A stretch of 64,000 nucleotides of DNA from the NCBI GenBank assembly GCA_015064685.1, contig SVRT01000007.1:5361-69360 (forward strand), read 5' to 3'. The position numbers and the translations under genes were made by a program. Positions within the stretch are counted from its first letter, which is position 1, and the number at the start of each line of letters is the position of its first letter. Origin of the DNA: Oscillospiraceae bacterium (GTDB lineage: Bacteria; Bacillota; Clostridia; Oscillospirales; CAG-272). This document shows, one piece after another, positions 6,615 to 63,591 of the stretch. The notes beneath the pieces are model-generated. The model saw nothing but the letters and a program-made list of their open reading frames with translations. It did not search any database and was not told where the DNA came from.

Positions 6615-6689
6615 TGGCACCCCCAACGGGAATCGAACCCATAACTAACCCTTAGGAGGGGCTTATTATATCCATTTAACTATGGAGGC
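6615..6689 (-). tRNA. tRNA-Arg (anticodon CCT)
   Basis: The reverse complement folds as a cloverleaf. Acceptor GCCTCCA/TGGGGGT, anticodon stem AGCCC/GGGTT with loop CT-CCT-AA, T-arm ATGGG-TTCGATT-CCCGT, discriminator G and encoded CCA. Confidence 0.85.
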
Positions 6690-51674: not shown

Positions 51675-52631
51675 TTGGAACAACTGAACAAGAAAAAATT
51701 CAAGCTGTTTGATATGAACAGAGACGGAAAAGGTGTTGATCCCGGCGAGGATACGACACCCAATCTGAAATTCTTTTTCAAGCTGCTTTGGAGAAAGCTT
51801 TCAAAAATAATTACACTTAATATGCTCGCGATAGTACAGATTCTGCCGCTTCTTGCGTGTCTCTATCTCTATTTCATCGCAACACCAACAACTCCGACAC
51901 AGTATTATCCCGAGTATGCTGCGCTTTACGGTATGCAAGAGGCAGCGTCAAGTGCGACAAGCTCACTGGGAGTGTCACTCTTCTCTTTCCAGCATCCTCT
52001 TCCCACCTATAATACCTACATTTATTGGGTTATAGGCGTCCTACTTCTCTTTCAGGTAGTAACTTACGGATGGCAGAAGGTTGGCGTTATCTATGTTACG
52101 CGCGGTCTCGTACGCGGTGATAGCGTGTTTGTATGGTCGGATTATTTCTATGCAATAAAAAAGAACCTCAAGCAGGGCTTTATCCTCGGTCTTATCGACT
52201 GTATTGCAATGTTTGCGCTCGCCTTTGACATTTATTATTTCTATACGTCTCCCCAGACCGGAATGAATAATTTTATGTATGTGCTGACGATTGCGCTTAT
52301 CGTTTTGTATATCATATTCCGCTTTTACGTTTATCTTATGGCGGTCACATTCGATATGAAGATCGGTAAGATATTCAAAAACGCTTTGATATTTATAGTC
52401 TTGGGAATCAAGAGAAATATTATGGCTCTTTTGGGACTTGCGATATTGACTGCATTTGCCGTGCTCCTTGTAGTACTGTTCTTGCCTATGGGACTTGGAG
52501 TAACTATCGTCCTGCCCTTAATATATTACCTGGGCGTTTGCGCATTTATTTATACCTATGCGGCATATCCGGTAATAAAAAAATATATGATCGACCCTGT
52601 TGGACCCACAGCCCCCACAGAGGAAGAATAA
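51675..52631 (+). CDS. YesL-like (DUF624) polytopic membrane protein
   Basis: 318 aa, about 6 hydrophobic segments. The N-terminal FFKLLWRKLSKIITLNMLAI pattern resembles DUF624. TTG start as given by the ORF track; in-frame ATG at 51714 is an alternative. Confidence 0.6.
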   Translation: MEQLNKKKFKLFDMNRDGKGVDPGEDTTPNLKFFFKLLWRKLSKIITLNMLAIVQILPLLACLYLYFIATPTTPTQYYPEYAALYGMQEAASSATSSLGVSLFSFQHPLPTYNTYIYWVIGVLLLFQVVTYGWQKVGVIYVTRGLVRGDSVFVWSDYFYAIKKNLKQGFILGLIDCIAMFALAFDIYYFYTSPQTGMNNFMYVLTIALIVLYIIFRFYVYLMAVTFDMKIGKIFKNALIFIVLGIKRNIMALLGLAILTAFAVLLVVLFLPMGLGVTIVLPLIYYLGVCAFIYTYAAYPVIKKYMIDPVGPTAPTEEE

Positions 52632-52668: not shown

Positions 52669-53418
52669 TTACTTTGTGTCGATAAGCTCGCTGATTACAA
52701 CGAATTTATACCCCATCTCGATCAGCTTTGGTATAAAAATATTCATTGCTTCGCATGTTGGGCTGTTGCTTCCGATATAGTCGTGCATGAGGATGATCGA
52801 TCCCGGCTTGATATGCTCGATCACGTTTTTTGCAATATCCTCTGCAGGTGTATGCGCCCAATCCCTCGTATCAATATCCCATAGGATCACTCTGTAGTCC
52901 AGCTCTCGAACTATTGCCAGAATACTTGAATCGATCATTCCCTCCGGCGGGCGAAAAACTCTGGTCCTCAGATCTGTTACTCCGTAGACTGTTTCTTCGC
53001 ATTGAGCGATTTCTTCTTTAAGATGATCATTATCTACTTGGTTAACGTGAGGATGTGAGAAAGTGTGATTCCCTATCTCATGTCCTCTTTTTGATACCTC
53101 TCTTAGCGTATCAGGGTAGTAATAAGCGTTAATTCCTACCGCGAAAAAGGTTGCTTTAATACGGTATTTATCAAGAATATTCAATATCTGCGGGGTGTAT
53201 TTTGGATGAGGTCCGTCATCAAATGTCAAGGCAATCTTCATACAGTCATTATCGTGATTTCGGTATATATCAATATCAGAAACGCATTTTGCCTCACAGA
53301 ATTTATTATCTGCATAGGAATACAATGAAAAAAGGTTGAGAAAGAATATAAATGAAAGTATTCCTGATATGATCACCGGTACTACACGTTTTTTCTTAAA
53401 GCTCGTCAAGTGTTCCAA
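52669..53418 (-). CDS. polysaccharide deacetylase family protein (NodB homology domain) with an N-terminal membrane anchor
   Basis: TM segment VPVIISGILSFIFFLNLFSLY. NodB motifs LTFDDGP, HEIGNHTFSHP, RPPEG and ILMHD. Confidence 0.85.
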   Translation of the reverse strand: MEHLTSFKKKRVVPVIISGILSFIFFLNLFSLYSYADNKFCEAKCVSDIDIYRNHDNDCMKIALTFDDGPHPKYTPQILNILDKYRIKATFFAVGINAYYYPDTLREVSKRGHEIGNHTFSHPHVNQVDNDHLKEEIAQCEETVYGVTDLRTRVFRPPEGMIDSSILAIVRELDYRVILWDIDTRDWAHTPAEDIAKNVIEHIKPGSIILMHDYIGSNSPTCEAMNIFIPKLIEMGYKFVVISELIDTK

Positions 53419-54163
53419 ATCTATATCCCTGCTCTTTGAGTTCCCTGATTATTTCAGCTAGTATCTCTGCGTTTGTTGCCGAGGTTGGATGCAGAAGCAT
53501 TATTTCTCCGTTGTGAACGTTCTCGAGGATTTTTTGCTTTGCTTTTTCGGCAGATAATTGGGCATTATTATCCCAATCAGCATACGCGAAGCTCCAAAAA
53601 ACCGTTTTGTATCCTAAATCCTGAGCATATTTAAGAGATTGCTCATCAAATTTACCTTCAGGGGGACGATAGTACTTTGATAGGTTTCTTCCCGTTTTTT
53701 CAAGACATATTGTTTCAAGTGAAGATAGCTCTTCCTTGAATTCCTCCGCGGTTTTCCCTGTCATTTTTTTGTGAGAAAACGTATGGTTGCAAACAAGATG
53801 CCCACTGTCAAACATTTGTTGAACAAGATCGGAATTTGCATCAATAAAGTGACCGAGAACAAAAAAAGCACCCTTCACACCTTCACTATCAAGAACATCA
53901 ACTATCCTCTTGACGTTACCGTTCTCATATCCTGCATCAAAAGTCAGATAGATCACCTTATCATCGTTTCCATCCCCGTGCTTTTTGTCAATATAGTACC
54001 CTCCGTAATTCTCAATGAAGGAAATCGTAGGGTCAGCTACAGGTTGTAAATGATCTTTTCTATGAACGCAAAACCAGTTGTATTCGTTGCAGTTTGCATT
54101 AACAGAAAGGGTAAATAATAAAAGAAAAAGAATAAGAATAAAAAGAAAAACAGTCTTTTTCAC
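53396..54163 (-). CDS. polysaccharide deacetylase, PdaA-like (candidate delta-lactam-biosynthetic de-N-acetylase)
   Basis: GTG start 54163 after AAGGAGA. Signal/anchor KKTVFLFILILFLLLFTLSVNA. LTFDAGYENG (the Asp-Ala-Gly variant I associate with PdaA), HLVCNHTFSH, RPPEG, MLLHP. Overlaps the downstream deacetylase gene by 23 nt. Confidence 0.75.
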   Translation of the reverse strand: MKKTVFLFILILFLLLFTLSVNANCNEYNWFCVHRKDHLQPVADPTISFIENYGGYYIDKKHGDGNDDKVIYLTFDAGYENGNVKRIVDVLDSEGVKGAFFVLGHFIDANSDLVQQMFDSGHLVCNHTFSHKKMTGKTAEEFKEELSSLETICLEKTGRNLSKYYRPPEGKFDEQSLKYAQDLGYKTVFWSFAYADWDNNAQLSAEKAKQKILENVHNGEIMLLHPTSATNAEILAEIIRELKEQGYRFGTLDEL

Positions 54164-54334
54164 CGTATCATCTCCTTTCGTGATTATTTTTTCCCAATGA
54201 TATTTTTTTATAAAATGTAAAAGCTGAAAATGTTTCAATTTTATTGCAAAAAGAGTCATTTTTTACTCGAAAAATATTGACAAAAAATCAATTATGCGAT
54301 AAAATATATATATACAGCATTTGGAGATCTTGCA

Positions 54335-54613
54335 ATGGATATATTAGGAATTTTTTTAGGTTTTTTCATCGGCGCTCTTTGCGGGGTCGTGCCGTTGCTT
54401 TTCGGTATTCTGACCAAGCATAGATTTTTAGGCATTATCGGAATAGTATCCAGTGCTATTTCGGGAATAATATTTGAGTTGTTTCAAAAGTCACCCTTTA
54501 CGGCTATAGGAGTCGCATTCGTTTTTGCAATAGCAATCTTTGCAAAGAACAAAAATAAAAATAGACCCTCACACGACGATCACGACGATCACGATATTTA
54601 TTTGGGTGAATAA
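54335..54613 (+). CDS. small membrane protein (3 predicted TM segments) with an HDDHDDHD tail
   Basis: 92 aa. Gly/Ile/Phe-rich hydrophobic segments, then KNKNKNRPSHDDHDDHDIYLGE. GGAG RBS. Confidence 0.6.
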   Translation: MDILGIFLGFFIGALCGVVPLLFGILTKHRFLGIIGIVSSAISGIIFELFQKSPFTAIGVAFVFAIAIFAKNKNKNRPSHDDHDDHDIYLGE

Positions 54614-54749
54614 TAAGGCGTATCAGCAGGTTTGTGCAGATATGCTTTATTTTTTTGCTACAAATTAGAAAAAACTATATACAAAAAGAGATTATTATGT
54701 TATAATATATAATAGTATATTATTATTCGAATGTTAACGGAGAAATAAA

Positions 54750-55613
54750 ATGGAAAAGGACAATAAAAAAAGATACAGCGAAAAGAAATACGGAGCTCAA
54801 AACAAAAAAAGCAGATCGTATGATGATAATCGATATGCGCAGAAGCGCCCTTCCCCTTTAAGTGATGCAGAGACTGAAGACACCGGTCTTGTGATAGGAC
54901 GAAACGCAGTTCGCGAACTTTTGAAATCGGAACGCGAAATAGACAAGATCCTGGTTCAACGCGGTGAACGTGAGGGCTCTATAGTTGTACTGGTAGCAAT
55001 GGCGATCGAAAAAGGAATTCCGGTCGTTGAGACAGATAAGAATAAACTTGATTCTATGTCGGGATTCGCCCCGCATCAGGGTATAATCGCAATGGCTTCT
55101 GAAAAGGAGTATTGCGCCGTAGAAGATATTTTGAATATCGCCCGGGAGCGCGGAGAGGCGCCCTTGATCGTAATCGCAGATGGAATAACTGACCCGTATA
55201 ATCTCGGCGCGCTTATCAGGTGTGCTGAAGGTGCGGGAGCGCATGGAATAATCATTCCCAAGAGAAGATCAACAGGACTCACACCGCTCGTTTCAAAGGC
55301 ATCTGCCGGAGCTATTGAGCATATGGCTATAGCCAAGGTCGCAAATATTTCCAATACAATACGTTATTTGAAGGAGCAAGGCGTTTGGATATTCGCGGCA
55401 GAGGCTGGCGGCAAGCCCTATTACGAAACGGACTTTAAGGGCGCATGTGGTCTGGTATTTGGAAGCGAAGGAAACGGGGTCTCGCAGATCGTGATTGAAA
55501 ATTCGGATGCACTCACGTCAATACCGATGTACGGAAAGGTAAATTCATTCAACGTATCCACCGCCGCTTCGGTCATTTTATGTGAGGTAGCAAGACAGAA
55601 TCGTACAAAATAG
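54750..55613 (+). CDS. rlmB: 23S rRNA (guanosine-2'-O)-methyltransferase RlmB (SpoU family with an N-terminal basic extension)
   Basis: GRNAVRELL substrate-binding domain, then GITDPYNLGALIRCAEGAGAHGIIIP, GLVFGSEGNGVS and SFNVSTAASVIL. Confidence 0.85.
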   Translation: MEKDNKKRYSEKKYGAQNKKSRSYDDNRYAQKRPSPLSDAETEDTGLVIGRNAVRELLKSEREIDKILVQRGEREGSIVVLVAMAIEKGIPVVETDKNKLDSMSGFAPHQGIIAMASEKEYCAVEDILNIARERGEAPLIVIADGITDPYNLGALIRCAEGAGAHGIIIPKRRSTGLTPLVSKASAGAIEHMAIAKVANISNTIRYLKEQGVWIFAAEAGGKPYYETDFKGACGLVFGSEGNGVSQIVIENSDALTSIPMYGKVNSFNVSTAASVILCEVARQNRTK

Positions 55614-55630
55614 TTATAACGGAGGTCAAA

Positions 55631-58621
55631 ATGGGTAGACAAAAGAAAAACGAATTGGATGCTATTCTTGAACAATTAAAAAAATCTTATGCTACCGATG
55701 TTGATGAGGAACTTGAGGACTCCTTGCTTGAAACCGAGGAATCCGAGGAGGATGCGGAGCTTGCATCGGTATTGGAAAAAATATTCGCATCAGGCTCTGA
55801 TGATGTCAATGAAGCACCTGCAGAAGAAATACCTTCAGAGGATGCGGAAGAAATAAACGGACTGACGCATGAAGATCAGACTGTTGAAAATATGGCTCCG
55901 GAGGAAATGGAAATCATAGTAACGTCGGATGACAACGAAACGATTAATTCGGTATCCGACCTTGATGGCAATAACGTTGAAGAAGAAATTGAAGACATAT
56001 TCCCCGCTGAGTTGCAAGAAATGGCGGAGAATACCGAATCAGATGTTGCTGAGAGCATAGAAACATACGAGGATGAAGATCAATCCGATATGCAATCTGA
56101 GGACAACAGCTTTGAAGAAGATCGAGTTGACGATGTCCTTAGAATGATGTTCCACCAAGACGCAGAAGATGCATCCGATGTTGCAGTTCAGGATCCTGAA
56201 GATATTGAATCTTCGGATGAGGGAAACGGTTCCCTCTATGAGAATGATGATCCTGCCTTCTCCTTGGATACGGATGCCTTTAATGAGGAGGACGCAGATC
56301 AAGTAGAAGCTCCGGAAGAATACGGCACAGACGAGGATGAATTTAGTGAAGAGACAATCGAGCAGTCTTATGACGAGGATCAAGCTGTTCTTGATGAGGA
56401 TAAGTACGATTCAGCCATCTTCTCTTCTGAATATGACGAATTTGATGAAGAAATCGATATAGATGAGTGCGATGAATTAGGTGATATTTATATCGACGAG
56501 ATCATTGCTGAGGATGAAGAAGCCGAAGAAGACGAGCCTGTAAGCAAAGCGAAACTGGTATTGTCTCCGGACGATTACACAGAAGACGTCCTCCAGTACT
56601 CGCTTTGTGATATGTCAATATTCAAGCCTGAAAAGGATATGGATTATTCGATGCACGATAACCGTGAGTCAGTGGAGGACGAAGATACATCGTATGCCGA
56701 AGAATCTGTCCGTAAAACGCCAACGTCAGAAATAAGTGATAATGATGTTTCACTGTTATTGAAGTTAGGCTACGGTGGAGAGGTAGCCTCAAGTATCAGC
56801 GATGAGCATGCCAGAGCCGTCGTAGTAGAAAAGAATAACGAGTACGTACCGCAAAAGCATAGGATTACGCACGGATTTAGCGGAAGAGAGTTTTCGGGAA
56901 ATACTAATCAGATTTCCGAAATCAATAAAAAGTATAAAACAGACAAAGTGACACTCCTTGTTGTCAGTATGATAATGTCTGTAATTGCAATCACTATGTT
57001 TATAGTGGACATTTTGGCTTCTCAGGCACAAAGTGATAGCGACTATGCTGTGTTGATCTTCTTCGAAGTGTTTTTAGTGCTGGCAATGATATTGACGCTA
57101 CTGTTCACAAAACGATTAATCATAGGATTTTTGGGAATAGCTCGATTTGAAGCAAATTCGTATTCAATGCTATGTCTGACAATGGCTGAATATCTAATCT
57201 ACTGCATAGCCATTGGATTTGTGTATGCACTGTCTCCAGATTATACGCAAAATGGAGTATATGTAGCCTTTGGCGGATATGTCTCGATTTATGCATCGTT
57301 TGTTTCGTGGGCAGAATATATTGATTGCTATAAAGAGAGTCAGGCATTCAACATAGTCAGCCGCGGAGATCTTCATTGCATTTTGGAGAAAAAGATTGGC
57401 GGAAAAGGATCGTCTAATGAAAAGAGTCAAAAGCATACAAAGATTACATACAACGTAAAAAGAAGCAGATTTGTGAGTGGCTATTTCAGAAGGATAATAG
57501 ATAAAGAAACTACCGGAATGAAAATCGTATTGGTTGTCGGTGTAGTTCCCTTTGTTGCGATCTTGGCGTGTTTAATAACAGCTTCAATGACTGAGAACGC
57601 CATTCTGGGTATAAATGCCGCAGGATATATTTTGTTTTCAATAGTGCCTCTGTCTGCTATTCTCTCACCTGCATTGATTGAATTGATACATAGCCTCAGA
57701 CTTTTTAAATCCGATAGCGTCTTTATCGGTGAGGACTCTGTTTCCGAGTATGCGAGAGTTAATTCTATTGCATTTGGTGATTATGATGCCGTTGAGATAA
57801 CTGCTATTACTGAGATAAATCCGAACAATAGCGAGGAAAGCTCCAAAAAGTGGATCAATATTGCCTGTAATGTATTTGACGCATTAGGCGGACCTCTATC
57901 CAAGACTATTAAAGGAAACCAGAAAGCAGAATCTAACGTTGGTCACGAGATTACGATCAATTCAATTGCTGAAAATGGAATAGATATTTATTTTGATTCG
58001 TCAATGAATGTGCTTGTTGGTGATCGACAGTATATGTTAGCTCACAATATTAAGGTCAAAACCGATACGAATCTTTCAACAGCGATAAAGGGCGTTAACA
58101 GAACAGTTCTCTATCTGGCATTTGACGGTGTTCCCCAAATTGGCTTTATTATCACAAGCAAAATTAAACCCGGCTTCTTAGAAACGGTTGAACTGCTTGA
58201 AAAGAACAAAATAAAGATCGCGATCAACACTTATGAACCTGAAATCAATGATTTTTATTTTGAATCCAACAAAGTCGAGAACGCACTGACGGTACAAAAA
58301 AACGATAATTACGAGCATGCCGAGCCGTCATTTATTACGGATTCGGGCATTGTTGCACCGGATCCTCATAAGCTTTGTGGCGCCATTGTCTACAGCAGAG
58401 AAATAATGAAGGATAGAAAGCTGTCCAAGAAAATCAGAATTATCCAGACGATAGTCGGAATTGTGATCGCAGCTCTGCTTGTGACGGTTTCCTGTATACC
58501 TTCAGGCTCTCAATTTGTGACGTTTGTTCAATCAAACTCATTACTTATTTTCTATGCCGCAGCATTTCTTGGAATGATACCGAACGTTGTTCAAACCGTG
58601 AAGCTGATCATGAAAAAGTAA
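55631..58621 (+). CDS. large membrane protein: ~440-aa hyper-acidic N-terminal region fused to a degenerate P1B-type (heavy-metal) P-type ATPase-like body lacking catalytic motifs
   Basis: 996 aa; GGAGG RBS 7 nt upstream. The D/E-rich low-complexity N-terminus is followed by 8 hydrophobic helices in a 4 + 2 + 2 arrangement, with a ~330-aa soluble domain between helices 6 and 7. By eye, this domain is collinear with CopA-type P/N domains. Confidence 0.7.
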   Translation: MGRQKKNELDAILEQLKKSYATDVDEELEDSLLETEESEEDAELASVLEKIFASGSDDVNEAPAEEIPSEDAEEINGLTHEDQTVENMAPEEMEIIVTSDDNETINSVSDLDGNNVEEEIEDIFPAELQEMAENTESDVAESIETYEDEDQSDMQSEDNSFEEDRVDDVLRMMFHQDAEDASDVAVQDPEDIESSDEGNGSLYENDDPAFSLDTDAFNEEDADQVEAPEEYGTDEDEFSEETIEQSYDEDQAVLDEDKYDSAIFSSEYDEFDEEIDIDECDELGDIYIDEIIAEDEEAEEDEPVSKAKLVLSPDDYTEDVLQYSLCDMSIFKPEKDMDYSMHDNRESVEDEDTSYAEESVRKTPTSEISDNDVSLLLKLGYGGEVASSISDEHARAVVVEKNNEYVPQKHRITHGFSGREFSGNTNQISEINKKYKTDKVTLLVVSMIMSVIAITMFIVDILASQAQSDSDYAVLIFFEVFLVLAMILTLLFTKRLIIGFLGIARFEANSYSMLCLTMAEYLIYCIAIGFVYALSPDYTQNGVYVAFGGYVSIYASFVSWAEYIDCYKESQAFNIVSRGDLHCILEKKIGGKGSSNEKSQKHTKITYNVKRSRFVSGYFRRIIDKETTGMKIVLVVGVVPFVAILACLITASMTENAILGINAAGYILFSIVPLSAILSPALIELIHSLRLFKSDSVFIGEDSVSEYARVNSIAFGDYDAVEITAITEINPNNSEESSKKWINIACNVFDALGGPLSKTIKGNQKAESNVGHEITINSIAENGIDIYFDSSMNVLVGDRQYMLAHNIKVKTDTNLSTAIKGVNRTVLYLAFDGVPQIGFIITSKIKPGFLETVELLEKNKIKIAINTYEPEINDFYFESNKVENALTVQKNDNYEHAEPSFITDSGIVAPDPHKLCGAIVYSREIMKDRKLSKKIRIIQTIVGIVIAALLVTVSCIPSGSQFVTFVQSNSLLIFYAAAFLGMIPNVVQTVKLIMKK

Positions 58622-58644: not shown

Positions 58645-60501
58645 ATGAACGAAAAGTTAAACTCAATTTTAAAGCAAGTCTCAAAGCCCGGAAGATATTC
58701 TGGCGGTGAGTACGGGCAGATCATTAAGGATAAATCAAAGGTTAAAGCAAGGTTTGCCTTTGCTTTTCCCGATACGTATGAGATCGGTATGTCCAATCTC
58801 GGTGTAAGAATACTGTACGAGTGCCTCAACCGCGAGGAAGATATCTGGTGTGAGAGAGTGTACGATCCGTGGGTGGATATGCAGGAGAAGATGAAGGAAA
58901 ACGGGCTGCTTCTCTGGGCGCACGAGAGCAAGGACAACGTCAAGGATTTTGATTTCCTTGGCTTTACCCTTCAGTATGAAATGTCATATACTAACGTTCT
59001 CAACATGCTCGAGCTTGCAGGCATTCCTCTCAGAAGCGCTGAGCGCGGAGAGGAGTTTCCCCTTGTCATTGGAGGCGGTCCCTGCGCGTATAACCCTGAG
59101 CCTGTGGCGGATTTCTTTGATCTGTTCAACATAGGAGAGGGTGAGAGCCTGCTCGTAGAGATAGTACGTCTTTACATACAGATGAAGGACGAGGGCAGAT
59201 ACTCAAAGGCAGAGTTTTTGCACGAAGCCGCAAAAACTATTCCGGGTGTATACGTTCCCTCTCTCTACGACGTTGAATACAATGCTGACGGTACGATCAA
59301 AGCATATAAGCCCATATATGATGACATTCCCACTAAAATAACCAAGAGAATCGTCGAGGACCTCGACAAAGCAATATTTCCTGATTATGCGATAATGCCT
59401 TACACCGAGGTAGTCCACGACAGAATAATGCTTGAGGTCTTCCGCGGCTGTATCCGCGGCTGTAGATTCTGCCAGGCGGGTATGATATACAGACCTGTCA
59501 GAGAGAAATCTCCCGACGTGCTCAATGAGCAAGCAAAGTGTATCTTTGAGAACACAGGATACGAGGAGATATCTCTTTCCTCGCTTTCAATAAGCGACTA
59601 TACGGGGCTCCCCGAGCTTACCGATAAGCTTCTTGAATGGACGAAGGATAATATGGTCAGCTTTTCCCTGCCATCTCTCCGAGTCGACAGCTTTACAAAG
59701 GAGCTTATGGAAAAGGTCGCATCGGTCAGAGCATCATCTCTCACGTTTGCTCCCGAGGCGGGATCGCAGAGACTCAGAGACGTTATTAACAAAAACGTGC
59801 AAGAGGATGACCTTATGAGAGCGGTCAACGTTGCTTTTGATGCGGGCAAAACACAGGTAAAGCTCTATTTTATGCAGGGACTTCCCACAGAGACGGAGGA
59901 GGATCTTGCGGCTATACCGAAGCTCGCTAAAGACGTTATCGAAGCCTTTTATGCTAATCCCAACCGTAACCGCGCAAAGCAGCCTCAGGTGACCTTCAGT
60001 GTGTCGCCATTCATTCCCAAGCCCTTTACCCCGTTCCAGTGGGAGCCTCAGGATAGCCTTGAGACAATGAAAGAAAAGCAGAGCTTCGTCGGAAGCTGCG
60101 TGACGGATAGAAAGATCAAGTATCAGCATCACGATGCAGAAATATGCCGAATCGAAGCAGTTATGGCTCGCGGAGACAGAAAGCTCTGCAAAGCACTCGA
60201 GCTTGCCTGCCGAGAGGGCTTTAAATTTGACGCGTGGAGCGAATACTTTGATTATGATAAATGGATCGAAGTATTTGAGAAAAGCGGCGTAGATCCTGAT
60301 TTTTATGCTAACAGACGATATTCCTTTGATGAGGTGCTTCCGTGGGATATTATTGACTGCGGAGTTGACAAGAGCTTCCTCGTAAGGGAGTGTAAAAAAG
60401 CGTATGAGGATCAGACAACGCCGAGCTGCCGTGAAAAATGCTCGGGCTGCGGAGCAAATAAGCTTGGAGGTGAAAGAACGTGTTGTCCGAAAAGAAAATA
60501 A
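58645..60501 (+). CDS. TIGR03960-family B12-binding-domain radical SAM protein
   Basis: MNEKLNSILKQVSKPGRYSGGEYG N-terminus. Radical SAM cluster motif CIRGCRFCQAG. Start at ATG 58645 (AAGGA RBS); the ORF track's 58624 is an alternative. Confidence 0.8.
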   Translation: MNEKLNSILKQVSKPGRYSGGEYGQIIKDKSKVKARFAFAFPDTYEIGMSNLGVRILYECLNREEDIWCERVYDPWVDMQEKMKENGLLLWAHESKDNVKDFDFLGFTLQYEMSYTNVLNMLELAGIPLRSAERGEEFPLVIGGGPCAYNPEPVADFFDLFNIGEGESLLVEIVRLYIQMKDEGRYSKAEFLHEAAKTIPGVYVPSLYDVEYNADGTIKAYKPIYDDIPTKITKRIVEDLDKAIFPDYAIMPYTEVVHDRIMLEVFRGCIRGCRFCQAGMIYRPVREKSPDVLNEQAKCIFENTGYEEISLSSLSISDYTGLPELTDKLLEWTKDNMVSFSLPSLRVDSFTKELMEKVASVRASSLTFAPEAGSQRLRDVINKNVQEDDLMRAVNVAFDAGKTQVKLYFMQGLPTETEEDLAAIPKLAKDVIEAFYANPNRNRAKQPQVTFSVSPFIPKPFTPFQWEPQDSLETMKEKQSFVGSCVTDRKIKYQHHDAEICRIEAVMARGDRKLCKALELACREGFKFDAWSEYFDYDKWIEVFEKSGVDPDFYANRRYSFDEVLPWDIIDCGVDKSFLVRECKKAYEDQTTPSCREKCSGCGANKLGGERTCCPKRK

Positions 60502-60530
60502 CACCCGGCGAAAAAAAGCTATCCCTTCCA

Positions 60531-61208
60531 ATGCTTGATAACCCGGTTACCGTGCGTATTAAGTTTTGTAAGATAGGTACTCTTCAGTTCGTTTCACACC
60601 TCGACCTGCAAAGAACATTTCACAGAGTACTTGTCAGAGCCAATATACCGATGTGGTATACGAAAGGATTTAATCCACACGCCAAGCTCGTATTCGGTCT
60701 TCCCTTGTCTGTTGGTACCGAGAGTATGTGCGAAATGGCTGATTTGAGGATCGAGAGAAAGATTGCGCTTGAGGATATAAAGAATCAGCTTAATGCACAG
60801 CTTACGGACGAGATGTACGTGCTTGATGCGTATTACCCCACTACGAAATTTGCTGACATTGCATATGCTGATTATACTATCACGCTTAAAGCGCCAAATA
60901 TTGATGAGAATAGTGCGCTCAAGGCAACAAGCCGCTTTATGCTGCCTATTATGATGATGAAAAAATCAAAATCAGGCGAAAAAGAGGTAGATATCACAAG
61001 CTTCATCAAAAAGATCGAGTTTGAATCAAAGGACGGTTGCCTTACGGCAAAAGCTATTCTGTCAGCCGGTAGTGCCGATAATTTGAATCCCGAGTATATC
61101 GTTACAGCGCTTCGTGAATGCGAGGAGCTTCGGAATGATCTAAGCGATCTTACGTATCGCATAATGCGAAATAAGGTGTATGACGGCTATCTCGTCGAGT
61201 TTAAGTGA
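60531..61208 (+). CDS. TIGR03936-family (DUF2344) radical SAM-associated protein
   Basis: VRIKFCKIGTLQFVSHLDLQRTFHRVLVRANIPMWYTKGFNPHAKL matches my recollection of the DUF2344 N-terminus. Its position right after the TIGR03960 gene is the usual pairing. Confidence 0.75.
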   Translation: MLDNPVTVRIKFCKIGTLQFVSHLDLQRTFHRVLVRANIPMWYTKGFNPHAKLVFGLPLSVGTESMCEMADLRIERKIALEDIKNQLNAQLTDEMYVLDAYYPTTKFADIAYADYTITLKAPNIDENSALKATSRFMLPIMMMKKSKSGEKEVDITSFIKKIEFESKDGCLTAKAILSAGSADNLNPEYIVTALRECEELRNDLSDLTYRIMRNKVYDGYLVEFK

Positions 61209-61305: not shown

Positions 61306-61347
61306 GTAAATAATACGGAAGAAACCGTTAAAATGGAGGAAAAAACA

Positions 61348-61770
61348 ATGGCAATCAAAATGAGAGTTCTCTGCTATCCCGAGAACAATAAGAAGCTCCG
61401 CTCAATCGCTGAGATGATCAAAGCGGAGTACGACCTTAACGTCAACTCTGTTGACAGAATTCCCCCCGCATATTCCTGTGATAAGGAAAGACTTGTTATC
61501 CTTGCAATTCAGATCAAGGGCTCCCTTCCCGATAGCTACAGACTTTTCGTTCGCGAGCTTACAAAGGCAAGAGCAGCAAACGTAGCTATTATTTATGCAG
61601 GAGACGAAGCATCTGTTACAAAGACTCAGGATCTTCTCCGTGAAGCCGGAACAAATGTTATTGAAGAAGCAAAATTCGTTAAGGTAGGACTCTTTAACAG
61701 CAAGGTTAATGACGAGGAAAAGGCAGATATCCTTGCATGGGTAAAGAACTGCGTGGATAATCTTGCATAA
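61348..61770 (+). CDS. hypothetical protein, 140 aa (possibly a flavodoxin-like alpha/beta fold)
   Basis: ATG 61348 lies 7 nt after GGAGGA. Alternating beta/alpha-like pattern (MRVLCYP..., LVILAIQIKG..., VAIIYAG...). No motif recognised. Confidence 0.55.
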   Translation: MAIKMRVLCYPENNKKLRSIAEMIKAEYDLNVNSVDRIPPAYSCDKERLVILAIQIKGSLPDSYRLFVRELTKARAANVAIIYAGDEASVTKTQDLLREAGTNVIEEAKFVKVGLFNSKVNDEEKADILAWVKNCVDNLA

Positions 61771-61787: not shown

Positions 61788-61818
61788 TAAAAACCCGCCG
61801 TAATTGGCGGGCTTTTAT
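61788..61818. terminator. bidirectional intrinsic terminator
   Basis: AAAAA-CCCGCC-GTAATT-GGCGGG-CTTTTATT. Confidence 0.7.
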
Positions 61819-61834
61819 TATTATCTTGTTATGA

Positions 61835-62416
61835 TCAAACGATATTCGGGGAAACAAAAGACTCCTTGTCTTTTGAGTAGCTTTCAAAATTCTCCATAAT
61901 GATTGCAACAACCTCATCGGGGGTGCGGGAGGTAGTATCGACAACGATGTTAAAATTATTATAATCGTAGTAATCAACACCGTATATATCAACGAATCTG
62001 TCACGCTCAACACGGCTTCTCTCAACAAGCTTTTCGCAAGCCTCTTCAACGCTCTCGTAATGCTCCTCTGCGCCGCGTTGATTCAGCATAACTCTTCTGG
62101 CTGCCTCCATTGGATCGATGGTCAAGAATATCTTGAACGTATTCTTTGCAAAATGCCATGCCATTCTTGAATCGAAAATTAATTTATCGTCCTTGCGCTC
62201 CTCAGAGAGCTTTGTAACTGTACCGTCGATCTCGTGATCAAGAGCAGGATCTTCCTTGAGTCTTTTGTTAAGCTCAAGAGTGGTGATGCCGAGTCTGCGG
62301 GCGAATTCTCGATTGATGACACCTGTGCTGAATATCTCGAATCCGTATCTTTCCTTCATAATGTTGCAAACCGTGGATTTTCCGCTGCCGAGTCTGCCTG
62401 TGATAGAAATAAGCAT
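61835..62416 (-). CDS. cytidylate kinase-like family P-loop kinase
   Basis: Start MLISITGRLGSGKSTV (Walker A), ATG 62416. (d)CMP kinase-like layout with a LID-like RSRVERDRF segment. Confidence 0.75.
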   Translation of the reverse strand: MLISITGRLGSGKSTVCNIMKERYGFEIFSTGVINREFARRLGITTLELNKRLKEDPALDHEIDGTVTKLSEERKDDKLIFDSRMAWHFAKNTFKIFLTIDPMEAARRVMLNQRGAEEHYESVEEACEKLVERSRVERDRFVDIYGVDYYDYNNFNIVVDTTSRTPDEVVAIIMENFESYSKDKESFVSPNIV

Positions 62417-62509
62417 TATTATGTATCCTCCAATTTGATATAAGAAAGACGACCTTTCCCAAATACCGCATAAACGGTAGATTTGCGAAAGGTCGGCTAA
62501 AATCATATT

Positions 62510-62983
62510 TTATTCTTCCTCAGCAATAAGCATTACCGTGAAAACATCTCCGTCCTCGAGGAGTGTCTCACTCATTTTTCCGTCACTGAGATCGTCCAGA
62601 ATATCGTCCTTGCTAAGATTTATGCCTCCATCAACAAATCCCCAATACTCACCGTTGTTTTTGTTGGCTTTCATACCACCTATCTGGGTGATGGAATTTG
62701 TTTTGTCGACTTTGCACACGTAATCAGCTACCACTGAGAGGTAAGTTTTGAGAACGTTAAGGATAGTGGGCGTTTCATGACCCTTGTATAGGTAATCAGT
62801 TGCTTCAAGTACAGTTTTTCCCGTAGCATCCTTGATCTGGAAGGAGACGGTTACCTCGTAAAGCTCTCTTTCGGGAAGATCGGGAGCCTCTCCCGCGTTC
62901 TTTCCTGCGCCGTCACAAGCAACGAATGCAGAGGAAAGCATAAGCAATGCCAAAAGCATGGAAAGTATTTTTACGGTTTTCAT
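62510..62983 (-). CDS. DUF4430-domain lipoprotein
   Basis: MKTVKILSMLLALLMLSSAFVAC is a signal peptide plus lipobox, ATG 62983. The C-terminal YWGFVDGG...LEDGDVFTVMLI pattern resembles DUF4430 (transcobalamin-like beta-grasp). Confidence 0.7.
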   Translation of the reverse strand: MKTVKILSMLLALLMLSSAFVACDGAGKNAGEAPDLPERELYEVTVSFQIKDATGKTVLEATDYLYKGHETPTILNVLKTYLSVVADYVCKVDKTNSITQIGGMKANKNNGEYWGFVDGGINLSKDDILDDLSDGKMSETLLEDGDVFTVMLIAEEE

Positions 62984-63084
62984 TTGAAATATCCTCCGGA
63001 TTGCAAAAATAACTGTAATAATTATACAATAAATATTCCCCTTTGTCAATAGTTATTTTTGTAAACATTGGCGAAATTCAATGA

Positions 63085-63591
63085 TTAATTGTGTAAAAAA
63101 ACAGAGAAGCTTAAAAGAAGATTGTAAAACTGCCAAATTGTAAACCCCAATACCGTTACGGACGATACACGCGGATAAGCTTTATGCCAGATGATCGAGG
63201 TTATCAAGGAGCATAAAGCACATATGCAGGATAACAAGAGCGCGATGAAGAGGCGACCTGCATAAAACAAAAGAAAGTGTCTGATTATCGATAGCCAAAA
63301 GGCTGAAATGAGAAACGCACCGCCCTTGTGAGCCGCAGTTTCAATGTCACCCGAATTAATCCTCCTTGTATTTGCTTCGAGTATTGCTCCGTAAGCTGCT
63401 CCGATAAGAAAATACCACACCGTTGAGATGAGATTATATATCCATATAGGCGGAAAAATATTCATTCCCCGTAATACGTTAATTGAGCAAAGCGGAGCGC
63501 CGAAAAGAACTAAAGAGGCAATGCCTGTTATTGCGCAAGCTATTCCGCATAAAAGTGCGATCGGAGTGAAAAAAACGTTTTTCTTATTCAT
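63085..63591 (-). CDS. integral membrane protein, 5 predicted TM segments (possibly TspO/MBR-related)
   Basis: 168 aa, aromatic-rich helices. FPPIWIYNLISTVWYFLIGAAYG loosely recalls the TspO PPxWxFxxVWxxLY motif. Family assignment is tentative. Confidence 0.5.
   Translation of the reverse strand: MNKKNVFFTPIALLCGIACAITGIASLVLFGAPLCSINVLRGMNIFPPIWIYNLISTVWYFLIGAAYGAILEANTRRINSGDIETAAHKGGAFLISAFWLSIIRHFLLFYAGRLFIALLLSCICALCSLITSIIWHKAYPRVSSVTVLGFTIWQFYNLLLSFSVFLHN

Follow-up and report, generated by a model that had tools for sequence, protein, structure and literature searches.

Few membrane enzymes are understood as well as the P-type ATPases. In the genuine pumps CopA and ZntA the actuator (A) domain comprises ~120-130 amino acids (aa) and carries a TGE motif (at position 374 in CopA and 288 in ZntA), and a search of profile libraries and the searchable literature gave no described family that keeps the whole pump scaffold while lacking the phosphorylated aspartate, the nucleotide site, the ion ligands and the actuator. 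Here we examined an open reading frame (ORF) whose product appears to combine these properties. It is located on the plus strand at 55631..58621 of a 64-kb stretch of DNA from an Oscillospiraceae bacterium (64,000 nucleotides (nt) of contig SVRT01000007.1, hereafter the window, to which all coordinates refer unless another locus is named), is intact and starts with ATG. Its product is called the 996-aa protein below, with residues numbered from its start, and is laid out as a polyacidic disordered tail of ~370 aa followed by a module of about 600-625 aa. A first-pass annotation had described it as a catalytically dead look-alike of a P1B-type heavy-metal pump fused to a giant acidic domain and had known of no characterised family with this architecture, which agrees with the search above. 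Our results show that the module represents a widespread and unannotated derivative of the P1B-ATPases which, judged from its sequence, is probably non-catalytic.

The kinship with pumps is nearly invisible to single-sequence methods, and family profiles and structure prediction were needed to detect it. A Pfam scan of the 996-aa protein gave no significant match, including to the E1-E2_ATPase, Hydrolase and HAD models, and phmmer with the single sequence found no match in the PDB. The NCBIfam model for heavy-metal P-type ATPases, TIGR01525, aligned collinearly over ~200 residues with 16.1-17.7 bits (E ~1e-3), far under its curated cut-off of 346.25 bits. For the C-terminal 576 aa there were 49 clear homologues (31-99% identity, ~850-1000 aa in length), none of which had a Pfam domain. 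When a family profile of the trimmed module was compared with all PDB sequences, the top four matches were all P1B pumps, with LpCopA (3rfu) first (E=0.0025 over 230 collinear residues) and CadA, ATP7B and ZntA following; the full-length alignment was weaker as a profile (CadA, E=0.63). Alignment of the family with E. coli CopA and ZntA by hhalign gave E=1.9e-4.

A structural model of the 996-aa protein was built with AlphaFold2 (AF2) from 51 sequences. The predicted local distance difference test score (pLDDT) was ~80-95 over residues 370-996, while most of residues 28-366 were disordered. In a Foldseek search of the PDB with this model the top 50 matches were exclusively P-type ATPases and P1B pumps came first: the best match was LpCopA (4bbj; E=6.4e-13, 699 aligned columns, target-normalised template modelling (TM) score 0.47), followed by ATP7B, KdpB, ZntA, CadA and HMA4. 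Hydropathy and AF2 secondary structure both gave eight hydrophobic helices in the order 4, 2 and 2, separated in the hydropathy profile by soluble inserts of ~60 aa and ~240 aa. The first four, MA, MB, M1 and M2 (residues 437-566, 56939..57328), correspond to AF2 helices 425-465, 472-491/493-504, 510-534 and 548-577. They are followed by the actuator stub (residues 567-627, 57329..57511), by M3 and M4 (residues 628-693, 57512..57709; AF2 helices 632-654 and 657-670/678-693, also covered by the HMMER alignments), by a look-alike of the phosphorylation (P) and nucleotide-binding (N) domains (residues 694-930, 57710..58420), which was delimited by profile alignments, Foldseek and conservation, and by M5, M6 and a C-terminal amphipathic basic helix (residues 931-996, 58421..58618; hydropathy, AF2 and conservation) in which P984 is invariant across the close family. 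The model has the features that are specific to P1B pumps, namely the extra N-terminal helix pair and the kink of MB, at G499, into an amphipathic basic platform helix, and M4 is broken around P673. G499 is kept in 176/179 sequences superfamily-wide. On the strength of the profiles and the predicted structure, the assignment of residues 370-996 to the P-type ATPase (P1B) fold can be regarded as settled.

The register of the motifs was derived from HMMER alignments to LpCopA, CadA and ZntA and from the hhalign alignment to E. coli CopA/ZntA, and the four independent alignments gave one register. In this register the F/V preceding the phosphorylated aspartate corresponds to F715, the phosphorylated aspartate of DKTGT to residue 716 (Gly in the 996-aa protein), its Lys to D717 and its Gly to D719; the His of SEHPL corresponds to G754, the C-P-C of M4 to V672-P673-L674, T-G-D-N to T867-Y-E869-P and the first Asp of GDGxND to D904. 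The interval from the M4 proline to the position of the phosphorylated aspartate is 43 residues in CopA, ZntA and the 996-aa protein alike, that from the aspartate to the His position is 39, 39 and 38, and that from the aspartate to the T of TGDN is 150, 147 and 151, respectively. According to DSSP the model has a strand at 712-716, a turn at 717-720 and a strand at 721-729, as in the strand, squiggle and flap of the haloacid dehalogenase (HAD) fold, and residue 716 ends the strand. Motif spacing and the DSSP pattern thus support the same register, with 716 at the position of the phosphorylated aspartate.

None of the alignments revealed a hidden intact DKTGT motif. Residue 716 is D, N, S, K, R, E or G among the 49 family members and Asp in only 10/49; superfamily-wide (n=179) it is Asp in 17/79 close (~22%) and 41/100 distant (41%) representatives. 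The nucleotide-binding SEHPL is replaced by LGGPL (752-756), with an invariant Gly at the His position, TGDN is replaced by [ST]-Y-E-P, with loss of its G and its N, and GDGxNDxP by D904-[GS]-x-[VI]-[VI], without the N-D pair. Metal-binding CxxC/HMA domains are absent from the 996-aa protein. In M4 only the proline remains (P673, in 48/49 close sequences and 80% of distant ones), with aliphatic residues on either side of it (672 and 674). M2 and M3 are joined by a segment of ~60 aa that is modelled as a two-strand beta-hairpin (strands 582-588 and 606-616) without TGE; F573 and E586 are conserved within it and the family consensus is Y-T-A-E-K. E586 (stub 583-587, window 57376-57390) was kept in 75/79 close and 50/100 distant representatives, and the corresponding sequence is I-L-E-K-K in the 996-aa protein. 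This glutamate may be what remains of the TGES loop of the actuator, but the hidden Markov model alignments stop short of the stub. Some residues of the pump signatures survive: TGD keeps its Thr/Ser and its acidic residue, motif III its Lys (K890, 49/49) and GDG its first Asp (D904, 43/49).

These results bear out most of the first-pass description. The arrangement of eight helices, the collinearity of the soluble domain with the P and N domains of CopA/ZntA, the shortened actuator without TGE and the by-eye replacements of DKTGT by GDYDA, of TGDN by TYEP and of GDGxND by TDSGIV were all reproduced. Three details needed revision. The soluble domain, estimated at ~330 aa, is ~240 aa long (residues 694-930); the supposed counterpart of CPC, L678-S679-P680, is displaced from the true one, V672-P673-L674, given that P680 is found in 22/49 sequences and P673 in 48/49; and to say that all catalytic signatures have been replaced goes slightly too far, in view of the survivors listed above. 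Because the phosphorylated aspartate, the TGE and A domain, the CPC, the His-Pro motif, intact TGDN and GDGxND motifs and an adequate family score are all missing, the 996-aa protein, judged by sequence and model, lacks the functional hallmarks of a P1B pump, yet it keeps the fold.

The selection acting on the gene was estimated as the ratio of non-synonymous to synonymous substitution rates (dN/dS) from genome pairs without saturated synonymous sites. The ratio was 0.15-0.20 for the whole 996-aa protein, 0.17-0.31 for the disordered tail, 0.11-0.19 for the transmembrane core and lowest, 0.07-0.11, for the P/N-like lobe; for rlmB, the radical-SAM gene and the DUF2344 gene of the same neighbourhood (described below) it was 0.012-0.067. 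Homologues of the ORF were intact in 29/29 loci (840-1047 aa). Given that the ORFs are intact and that dN/dS is well below 1 in all regions, including the tail, the pump-like gene is maintained by purifying selection, and this selection is strongest on the P/N lobe. The possibility of a spurious ORF, or of a pump pseudogene in decay, for which the only hint is a non-synonymous rate 4-20 times that of the operon neighbours, is negligible and refuted by these intact full-length loci and dN/dS values, and thousands of homologues and a good Shine-Dalgarno sequence (GGAGG, 55621..55625, 5 nt 5' of the ATG as read from the sequence) also speak against it. Genomes that share 75-90% identity in RlmB and 87-95% in the radical-SAM protein share only 31-58% in the pump-like module. 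As a contrast of rates within one operon (loci L001-L028), the pump-like protein shows 31-58% identity versus 68-95% for the RlmB, radical-SAM and DUF2344 proteins.

The most conserved stretch of the protein comprises the N-domain look-alike and the adjoining P-domain strand (INSIS-NGID-YFDSS-NVLIGD-YM-HNIKVKTD ... FDGVPKLGFI ... SYEPQIND). LGGPL (752-756), G783 and G797 are also conserved in the lobe. The old active-site pocket retains D717, D/E719, E722, S/T867, E869, N873, K890, E895 and D904, most of which persist in distant subfamilies. Since these residues are so strongly conserved, a binding function has probably been retained at the old catalytic site.

The size of the family was determined by an exhaustive profile search over 1.84 billion cluster representatives (clusters at 50% identity). 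At E<=1e-3 the superfamily includes at least 2,690 of these representatives, 1,075 of which reach E<=1e-30, and every one has the ~600-aa module. All named sources were metagenome-assembled genomes assigned to Clostridia, Eubacteriales, Oscillospiraceae or Ruminococcaceae, from gut and rumen samples. The members are labelled 'hypothetical protein', save one distant member that is called 'Cation transport ATPase' in IMG. No Pfam or NCBIfam record and no searchable literature describes an rlmB-linked pump-like family, and literature searches on pseudo-P-type ATPases, DKTGT-less proteins, TIGR03960 and DUF2344 found nothing relevant. We propose the name rlmB-linked pseudo-P1B-ATPase for a family defined by the ~600-aa module, a variable disordered tail N-terminal to it and a gene located directly 3' of rlmB, a definition that the 996-aa protein fits; the diagnostic residues are G499, P673, F715, D/E719, G753-G754, G783, G797, [ST]-x-[DE]-P at 867-870 and K/R890.

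The gene neighbourhood is strikingly constant on one side. In the window rlmB (54750..55613, plus strand), encoding the 23S rRNA Gm2251 2'-O-methyltransferase (TIGR00186, E=1.4e-60; PF00588; PF08032), directly precedes the pump-like gene, and the same was found in 31/31 loci, including members of ~20% identity, among which the two genes overlap by 4 nt in L005. On the other side the stop codon is separated by 2 nt from the ATG (58624) of a gene for a B12-binding radical SAM protein (TIGR03960, 58624..60501, plus strand; E=5.8e-280), which in turn overlaps by 22 nt (60480-60501) the gene for a radical-SAM-associated protein (TIGR03936/DUF2344, 60480..61208, plus strand). The close clade, L029 and L031 all have the TIGR03960/DUF2344 unit 3' of the family gene, whereas it is absent in L005 and L030, as well as in the P0051 and P0196 lineages. 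The location between rlmB and the radical-SAM pair that had been noted before, with the stop 2 nt ahead of ATG 58624, is therefore correct for the window, and its rlmB side is universal, but the radical-SAM side does not hold throughout the family. Given 31/31 loci on one side and the missing downstream pair in the P0051 and P0196 lineages on the other, the conserved partner gene is rlmB and not the radical-SAM pair. The pair as an obligatory partner is ruled out by the same absence.

A candidate sigma-70-like promoter (TATACA-17-TATAAT with TG, 54678..54706, plus strand) precedes rlmB and, by its match to the consensus, would mark the probable start of an operon. No plus strand terminator was found from rlmB to 61794, where the only strong one after rlmB begins, an intrinsic-terminator-like hairpin (CCCGCCG...GGCGGG with a T-rich tail, 61794..61821, also delimited as 61794-61811, plus strand). 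It follows a gene for a 145-aa protein (61333..61770, plus strand) without Pfam match that is 68-89% identical in 24 related loci. The promoter-like site 5' of rlmB and this sole strong terminator 3' of the 145-aa gene predict an operon of five genes: rlmB, the 996-aa ORF, the radical-SAM gene, the DUF2344 gene and, as the last, the gene for the 145-aa protein.

The tail of the 996-aa protein begins with an amphipathic helix (KKNELDAILEQLKKSY, residues 3-27, 55637..55711), which is conserved in two family alignments and was predicted as helix 3-27 by AF2 (pLDDT ~60-80). There follow a polyacidic, intrinsically disordered linker (residues 28-370, 55712..56740), assigned from composition and low pLDDT, and a conserved juxtamembrane segment (residues 371-436, 56741..56938; pLDDT 70-89) that leads into helix MA. 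The first 370 residues contain 37% Asp+Glu, have a net charge of -121 and are predicted to be disordered, with pLDDT below 50 at residues 56-160, 175-307 and 338-366; small conserved helical islands are located at about residues 39-53, 160-173 and 316-322. What had been called a giant acidic domain is thus a disordered linker with short conserved helical motifs and not a folded domain. Within the close clade the tails are acidic every time (28-41% D+E, net charge -46 to -133, 207-420 aa). In L029 the tail is near neutral and Pro-rich, and distant members have tails rich in Pro, Lys, Ala and Glu that are not polyacidic. N-terminal extensions across the superfamily range from almost none to ~880 aa. 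Since composition and length vary among subfamilies, the polyacidic tail is a lineage-specific form of a variable disordered linker. Other elements are shared more widely: a short conserved helix at the start of the protein, with motifs related to the helix at residues 3-27, is common to distant members too, and the juxtamembrane motif of the close family (NDISLLLKFGY ... HGFxGKEF ... KYKxDK) has a counterpart in distant members, which keep 'D-I-x-M-L-x-E-L-G-Y-E'.

An electrostatic partnership between the tail and an N-terminal extension of RlmB was considered and found no convincing support, as the charges do not clearly co-vary. The charge of the RlmB extension in the clade with acidic tails is only +2 to +6; the extension is Arg-rich in L029, where the tail of the downstream protein is neutral, and absent in the P0051 clade. 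The RlmB extension itself is ~49 aa and Lys/Arg-rich in the window (54750-54890, plus strand). In distant lineages it comprises 105-130 aa rich in Arg, Gly and Asp (L029 3939-4250; L031 3782-4170), and none is present in the P0051 lineage.

What was observed here beyond the first-pass annotation is the universal rlmB link, the size of the family with its fast evolution and variable tail, and the conserved residual pocket. Taken together, the 996-aa protein is probably, although by no means certainly, a non-pumping descendant of a P1B pump, with the membrane core as an anchor, a P/N lobe that binds a ligand or partner, a tail that serves as a tether, and a function coordinated with the RNA-modification genes of the operon. 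It retains the complete P1B membrane architecture (MA, kinked MB with the platform helix, M1-M6 and the proline break of M4) and the P and N folds, and has lost the phosphorylated Asp, the His-Pro nucleotide motif, the metal ligands of M4, the N-terminal metal-binding domains and nearly all of the actuator domain. An E1/E2 phospho-enzyme cycle would not be possible for such a protein, and without this cycle it would not be an ATP-driven transporter. The eight-helix core would then act as a membrane anchor and the remodelled cytosolic P/N lobe as the working part, as suggested by its being the most constrained region and by the conserved acidic/polar pocket formed by D717, D/E719, S/T867, E869, K890, E895 and D904. 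The lobe would most likely bind either a partner protein or a small ligand, in the latter case a divalent cation or a compound that bears phosphate. The disordered tail with its terminal amphipathic helix could be a flexible tether that either brings a partner to the membrane or folds back on the basic MB platform or on the P/N lobe. Predicted co-transcription with rlmB, and translational coupling in some lineages, suggest that the protein probably acts together with the RNA-modification genes of the operon.

Several points weigh against this interpretation. The TM-scores to the pumps, 0.33-0.47, are moderate, as expected for multi-domain proteins with different domain orientations. The differing composition of the tail, acidic here and Pro/Lys/Ala-rich in other subfamilies, would argue against a specific electrostatic role. 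The genes may have stayed in order through operon inertia, without being coupled in function. The conserved old catalytic pocket could leave room for residual chemistry, and moving the register by a single residue would turn D717-x-D719-A-[IV] into a classical HAD motif I (DxDx[TV]). The pseudo-enzyme interpretation of the first-pass annotation is accordingly supported as the best available one and falls short of proof, as the old pocket keeps conserved polar residues.

A bolder proposal would make the 996-aa protein the founding example of an undescribed and large bacterial family in which a P1B pump was turned into a non-pumping platform that works physically with the ribosome/RNA-modification machinery, its tail tethering or regulating RlmB and/or the TIGR03960/TIGR03936 proteins at the membrane, or in which the P-domain has reverted to a HAD DxD phosphatase. 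As a whole we regard this as unlikely.

The possible shift in register leads to the alternative that the P-like domain is still an enzyme, a classical HAD phosphatase or phosphotransferase with D717 as nucleophile, D/E719 as general acid/base, S/T867, K890 and D904 as motifs II, III and IV, and the N-like lobe as a cap that chooses a new membrane phospho-substrate. The conservation of exactly these residues (D717 47/49, D/E719 49/49, [IVL]721 47/49, S/T867 48/49, K890 49/49 and D904 43/49, most of them kept in distant subfamilies) and the lowest dN/dS of the protein in this lobe are compatible with an enzyme, and the loss of the actuator would be explained as well, since an acid at D+2 makes TGE dispensable for dephosphorylation. 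The four alignments, the motif spacing and DSSP, however, put 716 and not 717 at the position of the nucleophile, and D717 is replaced by Ala or Ser in ~17% of distant members (e.g. the P0050/P0167 clade), which would be unusual for a catalytic nucleophile. Furthermore, motif IV lacks its second acidic residue (V/I at 908) and there is no Pfam HAD/Hydrolase match, so that a retained phosphatase activity seems distinctly doubtful.

Constraint on the membrane part raises the question of whether it is more than an anchor. It could be a passive channel, a uniporter or a ligand sensor in which the P1B ion path (the M4 kink, M5 and M6) is reused without energy and the lobe and tail gate or report. 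A dN/dS of 0.11-0.19 in the transmembrane core is more constraint than a mere anchor needs, and both the widely conserved P673 and the nearly invariant G499 fit this idea. P673, though, has no conserved polar or metal-ligating neighbours (672 and 674 being aliphatic), the transmembrane region is less constrained than the soluble lobe and the gene context gives no hints of transport; we consider such a function improbable. It is very improbable indeed that the protein still pumps as an ATP-driven P-type ATPase whose motifs have diverged to an extreme: the complete fold and topology and the IMG label of one distant member would agree with it, but family-wide the phospho-Asp position is variable, the A domain and TGE are absent, HP has become GG and the CPC ligands are gone, and TIGR01525 scores 16-18 bits against a cut-off of 346.

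If the 996-aa protein and its relatives are non-pumping descendants of P1B pumps, they constitute a natural experiment on what a pump scaffold is capable of without its catalytic cycle, given the thousands of members in gut and rumen Clostridia, the purifying selection and the fixed adjacency to rlmB. The family also provides a handle on two mysteries of the operon, the widespread TIGR03960/TIGR03936 radical-SAM pair and the 145-aa orphan. For annotation, the name 'cation-transporting ATPase', as used by IMG for one member, should be avoided for such proteins.

Some further features of the locus were recorded. In L029 (8996-11638) one fusion protein of 880 aa unites the TIGR03960 radical-SAM protein with DUF2344. 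A gene for a predicted membrane protein of 92 aa with a His/Asp-rich tail (PSHDDHDDHDIYLGE; window 54335-54613, plus strand), which had no significant family match, is kept just 5' of rlmB in most related loci (41-63% identity). On the minus strand (52669-54259) lies a tandem pair of polysaccharide deacetylase (PF01522-type) genes with a 23-nt overlap. The pair and a DUF624 membrane protein (51675-52631) make up a conserved neighbourhood, which in relatives also includes spoIIID and a second SpoU methylase further upstream. Convergent to the operon and 3' of it (61835-63591, minus strand) are genes for a cytidylate-kinase-like protein, a 179-aa protein with a putative lipoprotein-like N-terminus and a TspO/MBR-family membrane protein, a set that is also present in L001 and L002. 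The sole Rfam match in the window was one tRNA gene (6618-6689, minus strand).

Among known systems, the membrane attachment, the long disordered region with short conserved helices and the setting among RNA-metabolism genes recall the C-terminal half of E. coli RNase E; this likeness would be one of working mode only and not of membership, as there is no kinship in sequence or fold. HAD phosphatases and phosphomutases share the HAD fold of the P-domain, and D717-x-D/E719-A-[IV], S/T867, K890 and D904 resemble their motifs I-IV, but the likeness requires a one-residue shift of register that the alignments do not back, no HAD profile matches, and the membrane scaffold is that of a P-type ATPase. 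KdpB, the P1A subunit of KdpFABC, was the second-best structural group (Foldseek E=1e-10 to 1e-7). It has a compact P-type core that works on, or by way of, a partner and does not by itself carry the main substrate path, but unlike the 996-aa protein it is fully catalytic (DKTGT, TGES), has seven transmembrane helices and lacks both the MA/MB pair and a disordered tail. The closest systems are the P1B pumps themselves (LpCopA 3rfu/4bbj, E. coli CopA, ZntA 4umv, CadA 7qbz and ATP7B). The 996-aa protein differs from them in the absence of the phosphorylated Asp, TGE, the CPC cysteines and HMA/CxxC domains, in having LGGPL for SEHPL and an A stub of ~60 aa, and in beginning with a disordered tail and a conserved terminal helix. 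It shares with them the eight helices, the MA and kinked-MB platform, the proline break of M4, the P and N folds, a motif spacing that agrees within 1-4 residues, the Thr and acidic residue of TGD, the Lys of motif III and the first Asp of GDG.

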